From Alphaproteobacteria bacterium (lineage in GTDB: Bacteria; Pseudomonadota; Alphaproteobacteria; SP197): a DNA stretch of 64,000 nt. A model generated the notes under the pieces. The model worked only from the letters and a program-made list of their open reading frames with translations, searched no databases and was not told where the DNA came from. Positions 4,126-14,304 of the stretch are shown piece after piece (position 1 is the first letter of the stretch; the number at the start of each line of letters is the position of its first letter). Where the stretch lies: positions 2,624,001-2,688,000 of the forward strand of contig OZ245842.1 in NCBI GenBank assembly GCA_965228895.1, given 5' to 3'. Made by a program: the position numbers and the translations under genes.

Positions 4126-4731
4126 ATGGACCTCGTGCTCTTCACCAGCCTGCTCAGCCTGGCCTTCGTCGGGGCGGTCACGCCAGGCCCGAACAACCTG
4201 ATGATCATGACGTCCAGCGCGGCGTTCGGTTGGCGTCGTAGCCTGCAGCACCTGTGGGGTATCGCGATCGGGTTCGGCTTCATGAACGCGGTGGTGACAC
4301 TGGGCTTAGGCCAAGTCGTCCAGCAGCTTCCCGAGCTCTTGGTCGCCGTTAAGATCGTTGGAGCAGCCTGGCTGTTGTGGCTGGCCTATCAATTCATTCG
4401 GCCCAAGGCTGCGTCTCAGGACGGCGAACCGAGCAGCGGGCGTCCGCTGCGCTTTTATGAAGCCGCGTTGTTCCAATGGGTCAACCCGAAGGGATGGACC
4501 TTTGCGCTTGCCGTGGCCAGCGGCTATGTCGGCCTGTTGCCGTCCCACTGGTCGCGCGCCGGCGTTGTCGGACTGGTTTTTGTCGTCATGGCATTGCTGT
4601 GCGCCGGCACATGGATGATGGCGGGCGAAGCCCTGCATCGCTATCTCAAGGGTCCCCAGGCGAACCGCATCTTCGGCCTGATCATGGCCGGCGTCATCGC
4701 CGCGACGGCGGTGGTTATTCTTTTGTCTTAG
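4126..4731 (+). CDS. LysE/RhtB family amino-acid exporter
   Basis: TPGPNN, G.AWLLWLA and FQWVNPK motifs in a hydrophobic protein of about 200 aa. Confidence 0.9.
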   Translation: MDLVLFTSLLSLAFVGAVTPGPNNLMIMTSSAAFGWRRSLQHLWGIAIGFGFMNAVVTLGLGQVVQQLPELLVAVKIVGAAWLLWLAYQFIRPKAASQDGEPSSGRPLRFYEAALFQWVNPKGWTFALAVASGYVGLLPSHWSRAGVVGLVFVVMALLCAGTWMMAGEALHRYLKGPQANRIFGLIMAGVIAATAVVILLS

Positions 4732-4744
4732 CGCCAAACACGGC

Positions 4745-5380
4745 TCACTGTTGCCTCAGCAAGTCACTGACCGTGTCCGATTGATAGAGGTCATCGGGCG
4801 TATCGAAGACGTAAGCCTCCCAGCCGGCCGCAATGGCGCCCTGCACCACGGCTTGGTTATCGTCGAAGAAGATGAGCGGATCGTCGTCCGGTTTACCAAT
4901 CAGGTCCTCCGCCCTCTCGAAAAACGCGGGCTCTGGTTTGAGACAGCCGACCCGGCCAGAGTTGATGATGTCCACGAAGTAGCGATTAAAGCCAACGACC
5001 TCCATGAGGTAGCGTGCTCGCGTGTTCTCTTGGTTGGTTGCGATGAACAGCTGTAGGTCCGGCACTGCTGCCAGCCGTTCGACATGAGCGATCAGATCAT
5101 CGTTGACGACGCCGTCCCGCTCCATCCAGTAATCAATGAAGACCTGTGGATCGCCGGCATAGCCAAGGGTTGGCAGCACGTCTTTAAGAGCAGCATAGAG
5201 GTCCAGGCGGCCCGTCAGCACGTCGTGCGCAAACACGCCGCGAATGAACGTGTCGGCAAAGTCCTCACGCGATACCCCGAAGTCGGACTCCAGTTCTTCA
5301 TCCCAACATCGGCGACGCTCGGGCTTCGCGTGGTAGCCGTGGATCAGAACGCCGTCCACGTCGAAGAGTATGATCGTCAC
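4745..5380 (-). CDS. HAD-superfamily hydrolase
   Basis: Motif I FDVDGVL, ATN, KP and motif IV FFDD. Confidence 0.88.
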   Translation of the reverse strand: MTIILFDVDGVLIHGYHAKPERRRCWDEELESDFGVSREDFADTFIRGVFAHDVLTGRLDLYAALKDVLPTLGYAGDPQVFIDYWMERDGVVNDDLIAHVERLAAVPDLQLFIATNQENTRARYLMEVVGFNRYFVDIINSGRVGCLKPEPAFFERAEDLIGKPDDDPLIFFDDNQAVVQGAIAAGWEAYVFDTPDDLYQSDTVSDLLRQQ

Positions 5381-5395
5381 CGGATTCGCCCAAGC

Positions 5396-5935
5396 CTATA
5401 GAGACCCAATCGTCTCGCGATAGATCTTCGCGTGGTTCACATAACGGTCGATGGTCGCCTGGAAGCCAGCAATCTCGTCATCCGACAGATCGCGCATTTT
5501 CTTGGCCGGACTGCCGGCCCATAGCTCGCCTGCCGGCACGCGTTTTCCCGGTGTCACCAGCGCACCGGCCGCGACCATCGCGCCGGTCTCGACAACCGCG
5601 TCGTCCATCACGGTCGCGCGCATGCCGATAAAACTACGGTCTTCCAGCGTGCAGGCATGGATCAGGCAGTGGTGGCCGATGGTGACCTCGTCACCGATGA
5701 CGGTCGGCGAACCCTTCCCGCTGACGTGAACGACCGTCGCGTCCTGGATGTTGGTCCGCGCGCCGATGGTGATCGAGTTGACATCGCCACGCAGGACCGA
5801 GCTGGGAAAGACGCCGGTCAGCGAGCCGATCGTCACCTCGCCGGCGACGAAGACGCCGGGTGCCACGAACGCGTCATCGGCGATCTGCGGCCAGACGCCG
5901 TGATGGGGCAGAATGATCGGTCCCGGCACACTCAC
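5396..5935 (-). CDS. Gamma carbonic anhydrase-like hexapeptide repeat protein (YrdA/CaiE/PaaY family)
   Basis: LRGDVNSITIGARTNIQD, His ligands in VVHV and IGHHCLIH, W.GSPAK. GTG start at 5935 overlaps the argC stop (GTGA). Confidence 0.9.
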   Translation of the reverse strand: MSVPGPIILPHHGVWPQIADDAFVAPGVFVAGEVTIGSLTGVFPSSVLRGDVNSITIGARTNIQDATVVHVSGKGSPTVIGDEVTIGHHCLIHACTLEDRSFIGMRATVMDDAVVETGAMVAAGALVTPGKRVPAGELWAGSPAKKMRDLSDDEIAGFQATIDRYVNHAKIYRETIGSL

Positions 5936-6981
5936 GGGAACATGGGTGCGGCGGAGAGCCCGTCGGTTTCCTCGAAACCCGCCATCACGTTCATGTTCTG
6001 CAGCGCCTGGCCCGATGCGCCCTTGACCAGGTTGTCGAGAGCGGAGACCAGAATAGCGCGGCCCGGCAGACGGTCGGCAAAGACGCCGATCAGGCACAGG
6101 TTCGAGCCACGCACATGGCGTGTTGCCGGCGCCTGACCTTGAGGCACCAATTTGACGAAGGGTTCGCCTTCGTAACGCCTGGCGATCGCGGCGCGCAGGT
6201 CGTCGGCTGTATGACCGTTCTTCAAGCGCACATAACTGGTCGCCAGAATGCCCCGGTTCATCGGCATCAGATGCGGCGTGAAACTGACAGTTATCGGTTC
6301 GCCCGCCGCCGACGACAGTTCCTGTTCGATCTCCGGCCCGTGCCGATGCGTTCCGATGCCGTAGGCATGAATGCCCTCGGAAACCTCCGTGTGCAGGTTG
6401 GCTTCCTTCGGCGAACGGCCGGCGCCGGTCACGCCCGATTTGGCGTCGATGATGATATCGCCGTGTTCGATGAGATCGCATTCCAACAGCGGCACCAGCG
6501 GCAATTCGGCGGCCGTCGTGTAGCACCCGGGGTTGGCGACCAGCCGCGCCTGGCGCACGGCGTCACGATAAATCTCGGTGAGGCCATAGACGGCGCTCTT
6601 CTGCAGCTCGACCGCGCGGTGCTTGCCGCCATAGATCTGTTCGTAAAGCGCGGTGTCGGCGAGCCGAAAATCGGCCGACAGATCGACGATCTTCACGTGC
6701 TCCGGCAGACCGGCGATGGTTTCCTGGGTCGTGCCGTGAGGCAAACAACAAAAGACGGCATCGACCTCGTCCCAATTGACATCGTCGATGGTGACGAGGT
6801 CCGGCAGGTCAAGATGATGCAGGTGCGGGTAGACCTCGCCCATCGCTTCGCCGGCGCGGCGGTCCGCGGTCAACGCCACAATGCGCAAATCCGGATGGCT
6901 CACCGCCAGGCGCAACAGTTCGGCGCCCGTATAGCCACTTGCGCCCAAAATCGCGACGTTCAGCTTGCCGTTGGCCGACAT
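5932..6981 (-). CDS. argC: N-acetyl-gamma-glutamyl-phosphate reductase
   Basis: GASGYTG, DLSADFRL, ANPGCY, SGVTGAGR, HRH.PEI, DNLVKGASGQA. Confidence 0.97.
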   Translation of the reverse strand: MSANGKLNVAILGASGYTGAELLRLAVSHPDLRIVALTADRRAGEAMGEVYPHLHHLDLPDLVTIDDVNWDEVDAVFCCLPHGTTQETIAGLPEHVKIVDLSADFRLADTALYEQIYGGKHRAVELQKSAVYGLTEIYRDAVRQARLVANPGCYTTAAELPLVPLLECDLIEHGDIIIDAKSGVTGAGRSPKEANLHTEVSEGIHAYGIGTHRHGPEIEQELSSAAGEPITVSFTPHLMPMNRGILATSYVRLKNGHTADDLRAAIARRYEGEPFVKLVPQGQAPATRHVRGSNLCLIGVFADRLPGRAILVSALDNLVKGASGQALQNMNVMAGFEETDGLSAAPMFP

Positions 6982-12764: not shown

Positions 12765-13229
12765 TCAGGCAGCCCTCTTGTTCTTGCGGTTACGGCTCGC
12801 CAGGTCCAGCACCTCGGGGCTCTGGGCCTCATGCGGGTGGTCGGGACCGACGTAGACTTTCAGCTTTGTCATGATGTCGCGGCCCAGCGGGTTGCGCGTG
12901 ATCATGCGTTCGACCGCCTTGATCACGACACGCTCCGGATGATCGCCTTCCAAGCGCTCGCCCATGGTGCGGCCCTTGACGCCGCCGACCCAGCCGGTGT
13001 GCCAATAAAATGTCTTCTGATCGCGCTTGTTGCCGGTCAGAGCGACCTTTTCGGCGTTCACGACGATCACGTGGTCACCGCAATCGACATGGGGCGAAAA
13101 GGTCGGCTTATGCTTGCCGCGCAGGATTTTGGCGATTTCGGACGCCATACGGCCGAGGACCATGCCCTCGGCATCGATGACGTACCATTTACGCTCCACG
13201 TTCGCGGGCGTCGCGACGTAAGTCTTCAT
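12765..13229 (-). CDS. rplM: 50S ribosomal protein L13
   Basis: [34 protein letters not shown]. Confidence 0.99.
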
Positions 13230-13296
13230 AACGTACCATGTCCCAAAAATTCAGGGGCCGCGGGCGCTTGAGAGCCGCCGCAGCCCAGGGCGGCGG

Positions 13297-13324
13297 AAAC
13301 TACCACAAAAGTCCGGGCTGTCAA
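13297..13324 (-). promoter_or_regulatory. Sigma70-type promoter of rplM-rpsI
   Basis: Minus strand TTGACA-N16-TAGTTT with extended -10 TG, followed by a GC-rich discriminator. Confidence 0.7.
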
Positions 13325-13410
13325 CGCTTTCAGAGCACCTTGTGGCCCCGCGATCGCGCTGCCAGGATGCGCGCGCGCCAGGAGGACGTTCCCAGCATGT
13401 TTCAAGCCCC

Positions 13411-14304
13411 ATGACCGACCAGAAAACCGCCAGCAACAGCGCCAGCGTTGAGGCGCTGCAGGACGTTCTGAACCCGGTGATCGACGGTATCAACCAGCTT
13501 TTTTTCCACTCCCGCGCGCTGAGAGCCTGGGGCATCACCGAAATCGGCCGTGCCGAGCATAGGGAGTGGATCGTCAAGATGCAGCGCGCCGAGATGCTGG
13601 TTGTGCGCTTGACCGCGCTCGACGGGGCGCCGCGCAGCCGGGACGCCGTCGACCTGGACCTGGGATCCGACGTCACCAGTGCCCTCGCCTCGAACCGCGC
13701 GCTGACAGAGCGCCTGATAACGGTCCTCGACAAGGCGAGCGCCGCGAGCGCCGGCGATACGGCGACCACGGATATCCTGAACGACTGCCGCAAGGTCGAG
13801 ATCGCCTATCTGGAACGGCTGGATGGATGGCTTGACGCGCCGGATGCCCTGCCCAAGCCAGCCAACGCCAAGCACCTGATGCCCAAGGACGGCGGCAAGA
13901 GCGCGATTGAGGCAATCAACCGCCTGCTCGTGCCGCTGACCGACTGTGTCAGCCAATTCTTCTACCACAGCCTGATCTTCGACGGCTGGGGCGATAAGGA
14001 CCTCGCCGAGCGGGAACTGAACGCCGCACTCGACAAGATGTACCGGTCCGAGGCCCTCCTGGAGCGCCTGCTCGACCTGGGCGGCACGCCCGACGGTCAT
14101 GACTTCGGCAAGATCGTGATCGGAACGAGCGAGGCCGAGATCGACCGCCTCAGCCTGGCCAGCCAGAAAACCATCCCGCCCCTGGCCGCCGCAGCCCGCG
14201 ACCTCGTCGATCCCTCCGACGACCCGACGACCTATGTCATGATCGAAGGCATCTGGCGCGGCGAAGAGGCCGACCTTGCCCGCAGAGAGGCGGCAGTCTC
14301 TTGA
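13411..14304 (+). CDS. Tandem two-domain bacterioferritin-like protein with degenerate ferroxidase centres
   Basis: Both halves align by eye to Bfr helices A-D (INQLFFHSR..WG / SQFFYHS..WG; KMQRAE / KMYRSE; RL..L.G.P; GK..IG). Domain 2 begins at about 13879. Confidence 0.8.
   Translation: MTDQKTASNSASVEALQDVLNPVIDGINQLFFHSRALRAWGITEIGRAEHREWIVKMQRAEMLVVRLTALDGAPRSRDAVDLDLGSDVTSALASNRALTERLITVLDKASAASAGDTATTDILNDCRKVEIAYLERLDGWLDAPDALPKPANAKHLMPKDGGKSAIEAINRLLVPLTDCVSQFFYHSLIFDGWGDKDLAERELNAALDKMYRSEALLERLLDLGGTPDGHDFGKIVIGTSEAEIDRLSLASQKTIPPLAAAARDLVDPSDDPTTYVMIEGIWRGEEADLARREAAVS

Follow-up and report, generated by a model that had tools for sequence, protein, structure and literature searches.

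A double bacterioferritin-fold protein of uncultured Alphaproteobacteria that has lost both ferroxidase sites and is predicted to form a cage-less dimer with a Met/Met heme pocket in each chain

Proteins that carry two bacterioferritin (Bfr)-related domains on one chain have been described as double ferritin-like proteins (DFLPs), of which 157 were found in InterPro entry IPR008331 and whose origin is ascribed to duplication of a Bfr-like gene (bioRxiv 10.1101/2025.09.13.676036; all statements on DFLPs below follow this preprint). Here we describe a gene of similar architecture at positions 13411 to 14304 on the forward strand of a 64,000-nucleotide stretch of DNA from an uncultured alphaproteobacterium (GenBank assembly GCA_965228895.1, contig OZ245842.1, positions 2,624,001 to 2,688,000), which we call the window. 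Its product, a chain of 297 residues, is compared below with the DFLPs and with other members of the ferritin fold.

In the crystal structure of the DFLP from Thermocrinis minervae (TmDFLP, PDB 9VIW), the two domains are antiparallel as in Bfr, and residues M48 and M198, both 100% conserved in DFLPs, make up a putative intramolecular heme site. The DFLPs exhibit ferroxidase activity, and the EEHEEH set occurs in 79.6% of their N-terminal domains and in 57.3% of their C-terminal domains. They form a "parallel symmetric" homodimer and no cage as judged by size-exclusion chromatography with multi-angle light scattering, small-angle X-ray scattering and AlphaFold3. A C-terminal encapsulin-targeting peptide was found in 56 of the 157 proteins, the two characterised host organisms have no other ferritin, and the preprint remarks that "Some DFLPs lack both ... 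function ... is not clear" (bioRxiv 10.1101/2025.09.13.676036). A second group, the double ferritins (dFTNs) of Asgard and TACK archaea, is reported in another preprint to keep ferroxidase-type residues, to consist of five-helix domains in which helix E has moved to a place between helices 1 and 3, and to build, in the Asgard case, tetrahedral cages of 12 chains; a dFTN made in Escherichia coli bound no heme (bioRxiv 10.64898/2026.08.25.747088). Within the Bfr family itself, heme binding and ferroxidase function have been split after gene duplication in heteropolymeric Bfrs (PMC12120770).

The window gene encodes a real two-domain Bfr-fold protein that is under selection. The protein is most likely a soluble homodimer that performs no iron chemistry and in which each chain has one Met/Met heme pocket. 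We hold with moderate confidence, on the combined basis of sequence, structural models and analogy with DFLPs, the more specific view that it is a double Bfr-fold, ferroxidase-dead, cage-less and dimeric heme b protein. An initial annotation of the gene, made from its letters, had proposed a covalent pseudo-dimer with one intramolecular bis-Met heme and had stated that no described protein with this architecture was known. By analogy the first idea is sound, since the DFLPs provide an experimental precedent for it; the second statement does not stand, as DFLPs (PDB 9VIW) and dFTNs have been described in preprints. What is new here is the loss of both ferroxidase sites, the lack of an encapsulin signal, the frequent coexistence with a canonical Bfr and a probably separate origin.

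The open reading frame starts with ATG at 13411 and ends with TGA at 14302-14304 (297 codons), and both halves of its product are Bfr homologues. Pfam PF00210 matches the two halves separately (E 7.4e-8 and 8.4e-9) and the entire protein in two stretches (E 1.3e-17), and the NCBIfam bfr model TIGR00754 gives 53.6 and 52.9 bits for the halves and 102.2 bits for the entire protein, which is under its curated cut-off of 125.55. By sequence, the closest proteins of known structure are bacterioferritins (5zur_A, E 3.6e-13), and the two halves of the chain share 30% identity over 79 residues (E 3e-13), with an internal Met at 13879 corresponding to residue 157. The ESM Atlas yielded only generic ferritin-like clusters, every one of them below 0.9. 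These matches bear out the proposal of two fused Bfr domains. The features of the gene are as follows.

13411..14304, forward strand: full coding sequence of the 297-residue double Bfr-fold protein, including the stop codon (from the open reading frame and translation, two PF00210 matches, two TIGR00754 matches below cut-off and 35 same-length homologues)
13411..13836, forward strand: N-terminal Bfr-like four-helix bundle, residues 1-142, with predicted helices at 4-39, 43-69, 88-112 and 117-142 (AlphaFold2 model, Bfr alignment, VIA-align, family frequencies); the di-iron ligands are replaced by V23, K56, R59, T99 and Y133, and E130 is the sole ligand kept (Bfr alignment)
13579..13581, forward strand: codon of Met57, the N-terminal-domain equivalent of the Bfr heme ligand Met52 (alignment; Met in 48 of 48 family members)
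13837..13896, forward strand: inter-domain linker, residues 143-162, with the conserved end AKHLxPKxGG at residues 153-162 (13867-13896; family frequencies, model confidence, predicted interface)
13897..14301, forward strand: C-terminal Bfr-like four-helix bundle, residues 163-297, with predicted helices at 163-193, 196-222, 241-265 and 272-296 (AlphaFold2 model, alignment, VIA-align); the di-iron ligands are replaced by L176, K209, R212, Q252 and D288, and E285 is kept (Bfr alignment)
14011..14091, forward strand: C-terminal-domain helix B and the next turn, residues 201-227, which show the highest conservation in the family and contribute to the predicted chain-chain interface (residue frequencies, interface prediction)
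14038..14040, forward strand: codon of Met210, the C-terminal-domain equivalent of Bfr Met52 (alignment; Met in 48 of 48)
14212..14271, forward strand: turn between helices C and D of the C-terminal domain, together with the first half of its helix D, residues 268-287, with the pattern DPxTHTLxDG plus T276/G280/A284, the second half of the predicted interface (residue frequencies, interface prediction)

For residue mapping we used as the reference the genome's sole canonical Bfr, which keeps all six di-iron ligands and Met52 and has E18, Y25, E51, M52, H54, E94, E127 and H130 at exactly those numbers. Its gene (L001:1501-1983 on the plus strand, near position 3,678,275 of G000:C1) encodes 160 residues and scores 243.5 bits with TIGR00754; a convergent 70-residue Cys-rich reading frame beside it (L001:2049-2261, minus strand) looks Bfd-like by eye. 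Against this reference, domain 1 of the window protein has E18V, Y25L, E51K, H54R, E94T and H130Y, with M52 kept as M57 and E127 kept as E130 (residues 23/30/56/57/59/99/130/133 are V/L/K/M/R/T/E/Y). Domain 2 has E18L, Y25F, E51K, H54R, E94Q and H130D, with M52 kept as M210 and E127 kept as E285 (residues 176/183/209/210/212/252/285/288 are L/F/K/M/R/Q/E/D). The alignment thus reproduces every substitution listed in the initial annotation, and of the six ligands of the di-iron ferroxidase site (E18, E51, H54, E94, E127 and H130) each half retains only the equivalent of E127.

The chain also lacks the fifth helix of Bfr. Domain 2 ends at about Bfr position 139-141, which is the end of Bfr helix D, and in domain 1 helix D runs to residue 142, behind which lies a Pro-rich linker that contains a single three-residue helix (144-146). 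Linker residues 143-152 lie roughly in the place of Bfr helix E, as VIA-align pairs model residues 6-152 with residues 1-155 of 1bcf_A. Helix E was found in neither half by alignment, AlphaFold2 secondary structure or VIA-align, in agreement with the earlier view that both halves stop after helix D.

We next consider how far these features hold across homologues. A word-indexed search of 5.8 billion proteins recovered 35 homologues of 267-313 residues and 37-97% identity, all from metagenomes or metagenome-assembled genomes (MAGs), whose database labels read "bacterioferritin (cytochrome b1)" or are unnamed or "hypothetical". An exhaustive phmmer search of 1.84 billion cluster representatives gave 442 matches at E<=1e-3 and only 12 at E<=1e-10; nine representatives aligned over both domains (P0008, P0037, P0021, P0024, P0026, P0036, P0040, P0041 and P0044), and the remaining matches are fragments or single-domain Bfrs. 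Three of the nine, P0040 (319 residues), P0041 (304 residues) and P0044 (306 residues), are distant tandem Bfr proteins that share 28-32% identity with the window protein. Their N-terminal domain has K-M-R-R like the window protein, and in their C-terminal domain Thr occupies the position of the heme Met. Among contigs taken as one genome per species, the tandem protein occurs at 19 loci, whose titles name 14 Alphaproteobacteria MAGs, three Rhodospirillaceae, one "Proteobacteria bacterium" and one "bacterium". The family is rare and was found only in one order of uncultured Alphaproteobacteria.

That order, as defined by GTDB, comprises 33 genomes of one family, of which 23 carry the gene, 20 of them at full length and without stops, and nine carry no tandem gene. 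The copy in G007 changes frame and that in G017 is cut by the contig end. In G014 (L039, G014:C10) an in-frame TAG stands in place of the conserved Trp40 codon and the annotated remnant is P0036, and in G026 (L038, G026:C2) only a truncated domain 1 remains, followed by unrelated sequence. A canonical Bfr is present in 17 of the 23 genomes with the tandem gene versus 2 of the 10 without it, counts drawn from relatives that are not independent, and it is missing from 6 of the 23, among them the 100%-complete G028 and the 99%-complete G006.

Residue frequencies were determined for 48 sequences (58 collected, 53 unique, minus three distant and two truncated). The equivalent of the heme ligand Met52 is Met in all 48 members in both halves, so the outcome that would have spoken against the initial annotation, a Met not conserved in homologues, did not occur; the equivalent of the heme-pocket residue F26 is likewise Phe in 48 of 48 in both halves. 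The di-iron site fares very differently, in that neither half of any member carries an intact set. Glu does not occur at the E18 equivalent of either domain, nor at the E94 equivalent, and the H54 equivalent is R, Q, L or W in 27, 16, 3 and 2 members, respectively, in the N-terminal domain and Arg in all 48 in the C-terminal domain. The E127 equivalent is Glu in 48 of 48 N-terminal and 35 of 48 C-terminal domains, and the H130 equivalent is His in 16 of 48, in the N-terminal domain only. The assertion that ferroxidase sites were lost and the heme Met kept in both halves consequently holds for the window protein and for the 48 members. The K-M-x-R motif that the initial annotation regarded as retained in both halves fared less well in this homologue comparison, because only Met in both halves and the Arg of domain 2 are invariant (Lys in 29 of 48 in domain 1 and 8 of 48 in domain 2; Arg in 27 and 48, respectively).

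The strongest conservation is found in the C-terminal domain. Within residues 201-227, R201, L203, M210, R212, A215, L217, E218, R219, L220, L221, L223 and P227 are present in 48 of 48 members, and in the C-D turn and helix D the same is true of D271, P272 and G280, with T274 in 46, R283 in 44 and A284 in 41. Helix A of the N-terminal domain is another highly conserved stretch, as are linker residues K154 (47 of 48), L156 and P158 (both 48 of 48), K159 (45) and G161 (43). In an alignment of 36 sequences reaching down to 35% identity, 25 columns are invariant. For 10 pairs of loci, the ratio of nonsynonymous to synonymous substitution rates (dN/dS) spans 0.098-0.359 in domain 1 and 0.105-0.263 in domain 2. 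Both halves are thus under purifying selection and the gene is not a decaying duplicate, as had been argued from the shared motif. The isoelectric point (pI) ranges from 4.7 to 9.6 across the family, a spread that does not fit a conserved acidic mineralising surface.

The AlphaFold2 model built with 36 family sequences covers the whole two-domain chain with a mean predicted local distance difference test score (pLDDT) of 93.2 and a predicted template-modelling score (pTM) of 0.89, and the pLDDT falls to 74-82 in the inter-domain linker. By Foldseek and VIA-align, each domain of the model matches Bfr chains (Z 18-20, root-mean-square deviation (rmsd) 1.4-2.4). In two of these comparisons, residues 9-149 superimpose on 4toc_A with Z 20.5 and an rmsd of 1.4 over 141 residues, and residues 154-297 superimpose on residues 1-139 of 4am2_A with Z 18.9 and an rmsd of 2.0. 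No solved chain spanning both domains was found in the fold libraries searched (Foldseek pdb and two VIA-align sets, which do not include 9VIW). DSSP assigns bridges at 77/80 and 232/235 of the model, which would suit either an inter-loop pairing like that of a ferritin dimer or two local turns; as two local turns fit equally well, we dropped these bridges as proof of inter-domain loop pairing.

We then predicted a complex of two copies of the protein and two hemes by using the family alignment. The median ipSAE interface score was 0.70 compared with 0.09 for the best control, the runs agreed on at least 78% of contacts, and the partner pLDDT was at least 84. Note that, of 30 proteins solved as homo-pairs, 20 attained the mark used for ipSAE, as did 1 of 23 solved as single chains, counts that serve only as a rough guide here because the custom alignment and the riding heme lie outside that calibration. 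The prediction supports a symmetric homodimer, which would form through helices B and D of the C-terminal domain. The predicted interface (residues 39, 154, 156, 210-212, 214-215, 218-219, 221-222, 268, 272-273, 275-277, 279-281, 283-284 and 287) coincides with the most conserved residues of the family, which were found independently in the alignment. Its near-diagonal contacts (276-277, 279-280 and 280-284), along with the self-pairs 283-283 and 222-222, indicate that the helices D of the two chains would pack parallel about a two-fold axis. The interface includes a small-xxx-small stripe, T276/G280/A284, in which the invariant Gly fits a tight helix contact. A new functional site might be provided by the invariant acidic and His surface at this chain-chain contact.

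In Bfr the cavity is lined by helices B and D. Because this cavity-lining face is buried in the predicted dimer, the arrangement would be incompatible with a Bfr-type shell. The suggestion of a protein that builds no cage is thereby supported from several sides, namely the lack of helix E, the placement of the predicted interface, the broad range of pI and the dimeric state of the DFLPs.

The window protein can now be set beside the described systems. Like the DFLPs, it combines, in a single chain of about 300 residues, two four-helix domains that are related to Bfr and both carry the heme-ligand Met, and a symmetric parallel homodimer without a cage, reported for TmDFLP, is predicted for it. 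The family profile aligns collinearly over both domains of 9viw_A (306 residues, labelled "Bacterioferritin"), with profile positions 52-288 paired with residues 57-287 (E 4.8e-6, 29.4 bits). In contrast to the DFLPs, which are ferroxidases, the window family has no intact di-iron site in either half (0 of 48). The targeting peptide seen in 56 of 157 DFLPs is matched by none here, as the pattern [LF]x[VI]xx[LI] was absent from the last 30 residues of all 48 members, and the encapsulin family PF04454 had no match in the window's 98.7%-complete genome. The two characterised DFLP hosts have no other ferritin, whereas a canonical Bfr is usual beside the window family (17 of 23).

Canonical Bfr (TIGR00754; 1bcf, 4toc) resembles each half in fold and sequence family, in the retained Met52 and F26, and in helix lengths and ligand spacing. 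The window chain differs in having two domains, no di-iron site, no helix E and a score below the model's cut-off, and no cage is expected of it. The E. coli Bfr variant E128R/E135R (PDB 3e2c) is reportedly a heme-binding dimer without a cage. It would share with the window protein a Bfr two-fold dimer that still offers the Met/Met heme site; it differs in being engineered, made of two chains and intact at its ferroxidase site, whereas the window protein is natural, covalent and, judging by its residues, catalytically dead. The heme-binding subunits of heteropolymeric Bfrs are separate chains with helix E that assemble into 24-mers, in contrast to the window halves, which are fused, both inactive and devoid of cage elements. 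With the dFTNs, as reported in their preprint, the window protein would share two ferritin domains on a pseudo two-fold axis, a Met directed into the domain interface and an ordered linker, but its AlphaFold2 model has four helices per domain with short A-B turns rather than five.

In the mechanism that we propose, two Bfr-type four-helix bundles joined by a 20-residue linker in one 297-residue chain would adopt, within the one molecule, the arrangement of the two-fold dimer of Bfr, as in the TmDFLP crystal, so placed that M57 and M210 would face one pocket able to hold one bis-Met heme b. The protein would be unable to oxidise or store iron and would build no cage, and two chains would pair in parallel through helices B and D of their C-terminal domains. 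Its role would most likely be that of a soluble, dimeric, low-potential heme b protein, engaged in heme holding or buffering or in electron transfer and uncoupled from iron storage.

Several points weigh against this account. The Bfr-like arrangement within the chain and the M57-M210 geometry are inferred from the pTM and from analogy, and the homodimer is a prediction that may lean on memory of the solved DFLP dimer. DFLPs produced in E. coli had a sub-stoichiometric heme occupancy of just 3-8%, and the crystal contained no heme (bioRxiv 10.1101/2025.09.13.676036). The distant tandem proteins P0040 and P0041 have Thr at the C-terminal Met position, and hence not every protein of the wider group has the heme site. 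In some genomes the gene is broken or absent, and it is therefore dispensable there. Finally, the gene context gives no functional partner or hint and suggests only housekeeping-level expression.

Among alternative explanations, we considered that the protein is not a heme protein at all, that Met is kept for packing of the pseudo-dimer, and that E214, E218, D222, D271, H275 and D279 create an inter-chain metal or ligand site in a sensor or regulator. The strongest conservation indeed lies on C-terminal helices B and D and not in the heme pocket, D222-D222 and R283-R283 self-contacts fall on the predicted two-fold axis, and the published double ferritins produced in E. coli bound little heme (DFLPs) or none (dFTN) according to the two preprints. 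Yet Met is invariant at the exact position of the Bfr heme ligand in both halves, together with F26, and H275 is present in just 39 of 48 members, so that we consider this explanation unlikely.

We regard as quite improbable that the protein is a ferroxidase-inactive heme block that co-assembles with the cell's canonical Bfr in a mixed cage and supplies it with covalent heme dimers. The genome does encode a canonical Bfr with an adjoining Bfd-like gene, and the skewed distribution of canonical Bfr (17 of 23 versus 2 of 10, among relatives that are not independent) would agree with such a partnership, but six tandem-gene genomes, including the highly complete G028 and G006 named above, have no canonical Bfr with which to assemble. 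The initial annotation had entertained co-assembly with a true Bfr; as an obligatory arrangement it is for this reason unlikely. Neither half has helix E, the predicted homodimer buries the cavity-side face of the C-terminal domain, and in one clade the pI is as high as 9.6. The family does not conserve the equivalents of BfrB L68, E81 and E85, residues that contact Bfd and that are mutated in PDB entries among the matches of the sequence and fold searches. The DFLPs, in addition, formed no shells (bioRxiv 10.1101/2025.09.13.676036).

It is exceedingly improbable that the gene is a duplicate in decay, or a fused pseudogene, that lacks a function. In favour of this reading are the loss of the complete catalytic set, the interrupted, truncated and frame-changed copies (G014, G026 and G007) and the absence from nine other genomes; it is contradicted by the dN/dS of 0.10-0.36 in both halves, the 25 invariant columns, the 20 full-length copies without stops in the order and the confident fold prediction.

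We therefore return to the reading of a ferroxidase-dead, dimeric heme b protein and ask where it came from. The window family probably has an origin separate from that of the DFLPs, on the evidence of ligand spacing, profile scores and a distant relative that still carries helix E. Ligand spacings are 33/43/31 and 33/43/33 in the two domains of the window protein and 33/43/33 in canonical Bfr, versus 30/45/30 and 30/43/30 in TmDFLP, as counted from its published residue numbers. The family profile scores canonical Bfr at 79.6 bits over one domain versus 29.4 bits for 9viw_A over two. The C-terminal domain of P0040 is a near-canonical Bfr domain (E 2.8e-31 to Bfr) that keeps E18, Y25, E127, H130 and a full helix E.

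A quick LG+G4 tree was computed from 96 rows, comprising 26 of the 48 members split into halves, two distant tandem proteins likewise split, 39 canonical-length matches and the genome's Bfr. Each of three groups, namely N-terminal halves, C-terminal halves and Bfrs, lies on one side of a branch (SH-aLRT 99, 100 and 99), and the distant P0040 and P0041 fall with the corresponding halves (supports 80 and 85). P0040, P0041 and P0044 may be an intermediate or a side branch between canonical Bfr and the window family. When a profile from a widened alignment was searched at E up to 10, the 58 proteins found were made up of the window family and a second alphaproteobacterial tandem family, with no DFLP among them; 9viw was also not among the matches of PDB searches started from P0040, P0041 and a protein of the second family. 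We put forward only tentatively the broader idea that the window family is a third, independent double ferritin-fold lineage, which would have descended from a canonical helix-E-bearing Bfr rather than from the stems of the DFLPs or dFTNs, converged on the pseudo-dimer and on the parallel homodimer through the C-terminal domain, and deleted its di-iron sites to become a dedicated cytoplasmic bis-Met heme protein.

The second tandem ferritin-like family comes from the same group of Alphaproteobacteria, with about 25 clusters (P0184-P0209, P0181) of roughly 340-375 residues and loci such as L037:1888-2934 (plus strand) and L035:1444-2403 (minus strand). Its first domain is much more degenerate, and its second keeps E51-M52 (as DEM) and has lost H54. 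The family was not detected in the window's genome, where only the canonical Bfr matched.

The heme of Bfr has usually been studied inside the 24-mer, where its role is inseparable from iron oxidation and the mineral core. If the proposed reading is true, a natural Bfr pseudo-dimer with neither cage nor ferroxidase would show what a lone Bfr-type Met/Met heme site does, and would constitute a natural experiment that separates the heme function of bacterioferritin from iron storage. A catalytically dead branch of probably separate origin would also join the double ferritin-fold proteins reported in 2025-2026, and fusion of the Bfr dimer into one chain would have happened repeatedly. The annotation "bacterioferritin (cytochrome b1)" implies iron storage, for which the sequences of these genes offer no basis.

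The genomic surroundings of the gene differ between clades. At eight of the 19 loci besides the window (clade 1), the gene lies between a divergent rplM-rpsI operon, seen in seven loci, and a string of genes for an enoyl-CoA hydratase, a CoA-binding protein and O-acetylhomoserine sulfhydrylase, which follows directly downstream in seven. This context is absent from the other 11 loci, and in all three of these that were scanned with Pfam (L007, L010 and L018) a glutaminyl-tRNA synthetase gene (glnS) is directly upstream. In L010 the end of glnS overlaps the start of the tandem gene (4226-5956 and 5956-6846), and the same layout is seen by reading-frame size in L011, L012, L016 and L017; in this second clade, co-transcription with glnS is likely. 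Genes for a GMC oxidoreductase, FdhD and a MobA-like protein occur farther upstream in the second clade.

The initial annotation had pointed to the heme enzyme gene katG about 1.2 kb away. The distance is correct, as katG ends 1.2 kb upstream with rpsI and rplM between on the opposite strand. A functional link did not hold up and was rejected as non-syntenic, because katG is nearby in only one of seven related loci with upstream flank, that of the closest relative (L004, 85% identical protein). No RNA run was among the four sequencing runs listed as containing this stretch.

Between rplM and the gene, at window positions 13253-13350, a block of about 75 nucleotides shows strong conservation among loci whose proteins share only about 45% identity. 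On its minus strand TTGACA stands at a suitable distance from TAGTTT, and the block is probably the promoter and leader of rplM-rpsI. Rfam gave no match in 13150-13450 at E up to 1, and no obvious Irr, RirA or Fur box was noticed upstream by eye, no scan having been run. Closer to the gene, within 13381-13414, AGGAGG at 13381-13386 lies 10 nucleotides ahead of a five-codon mini-reading frame (ATG at 13397, TGA at 13412-14) whose stop overlaps the ATG of the gene (ATGA). The L004 locus keeps the mini-reading frame but not the Shine-Dalgarno-like hexamer, and the arrangement could reflect translational coupling or chance.

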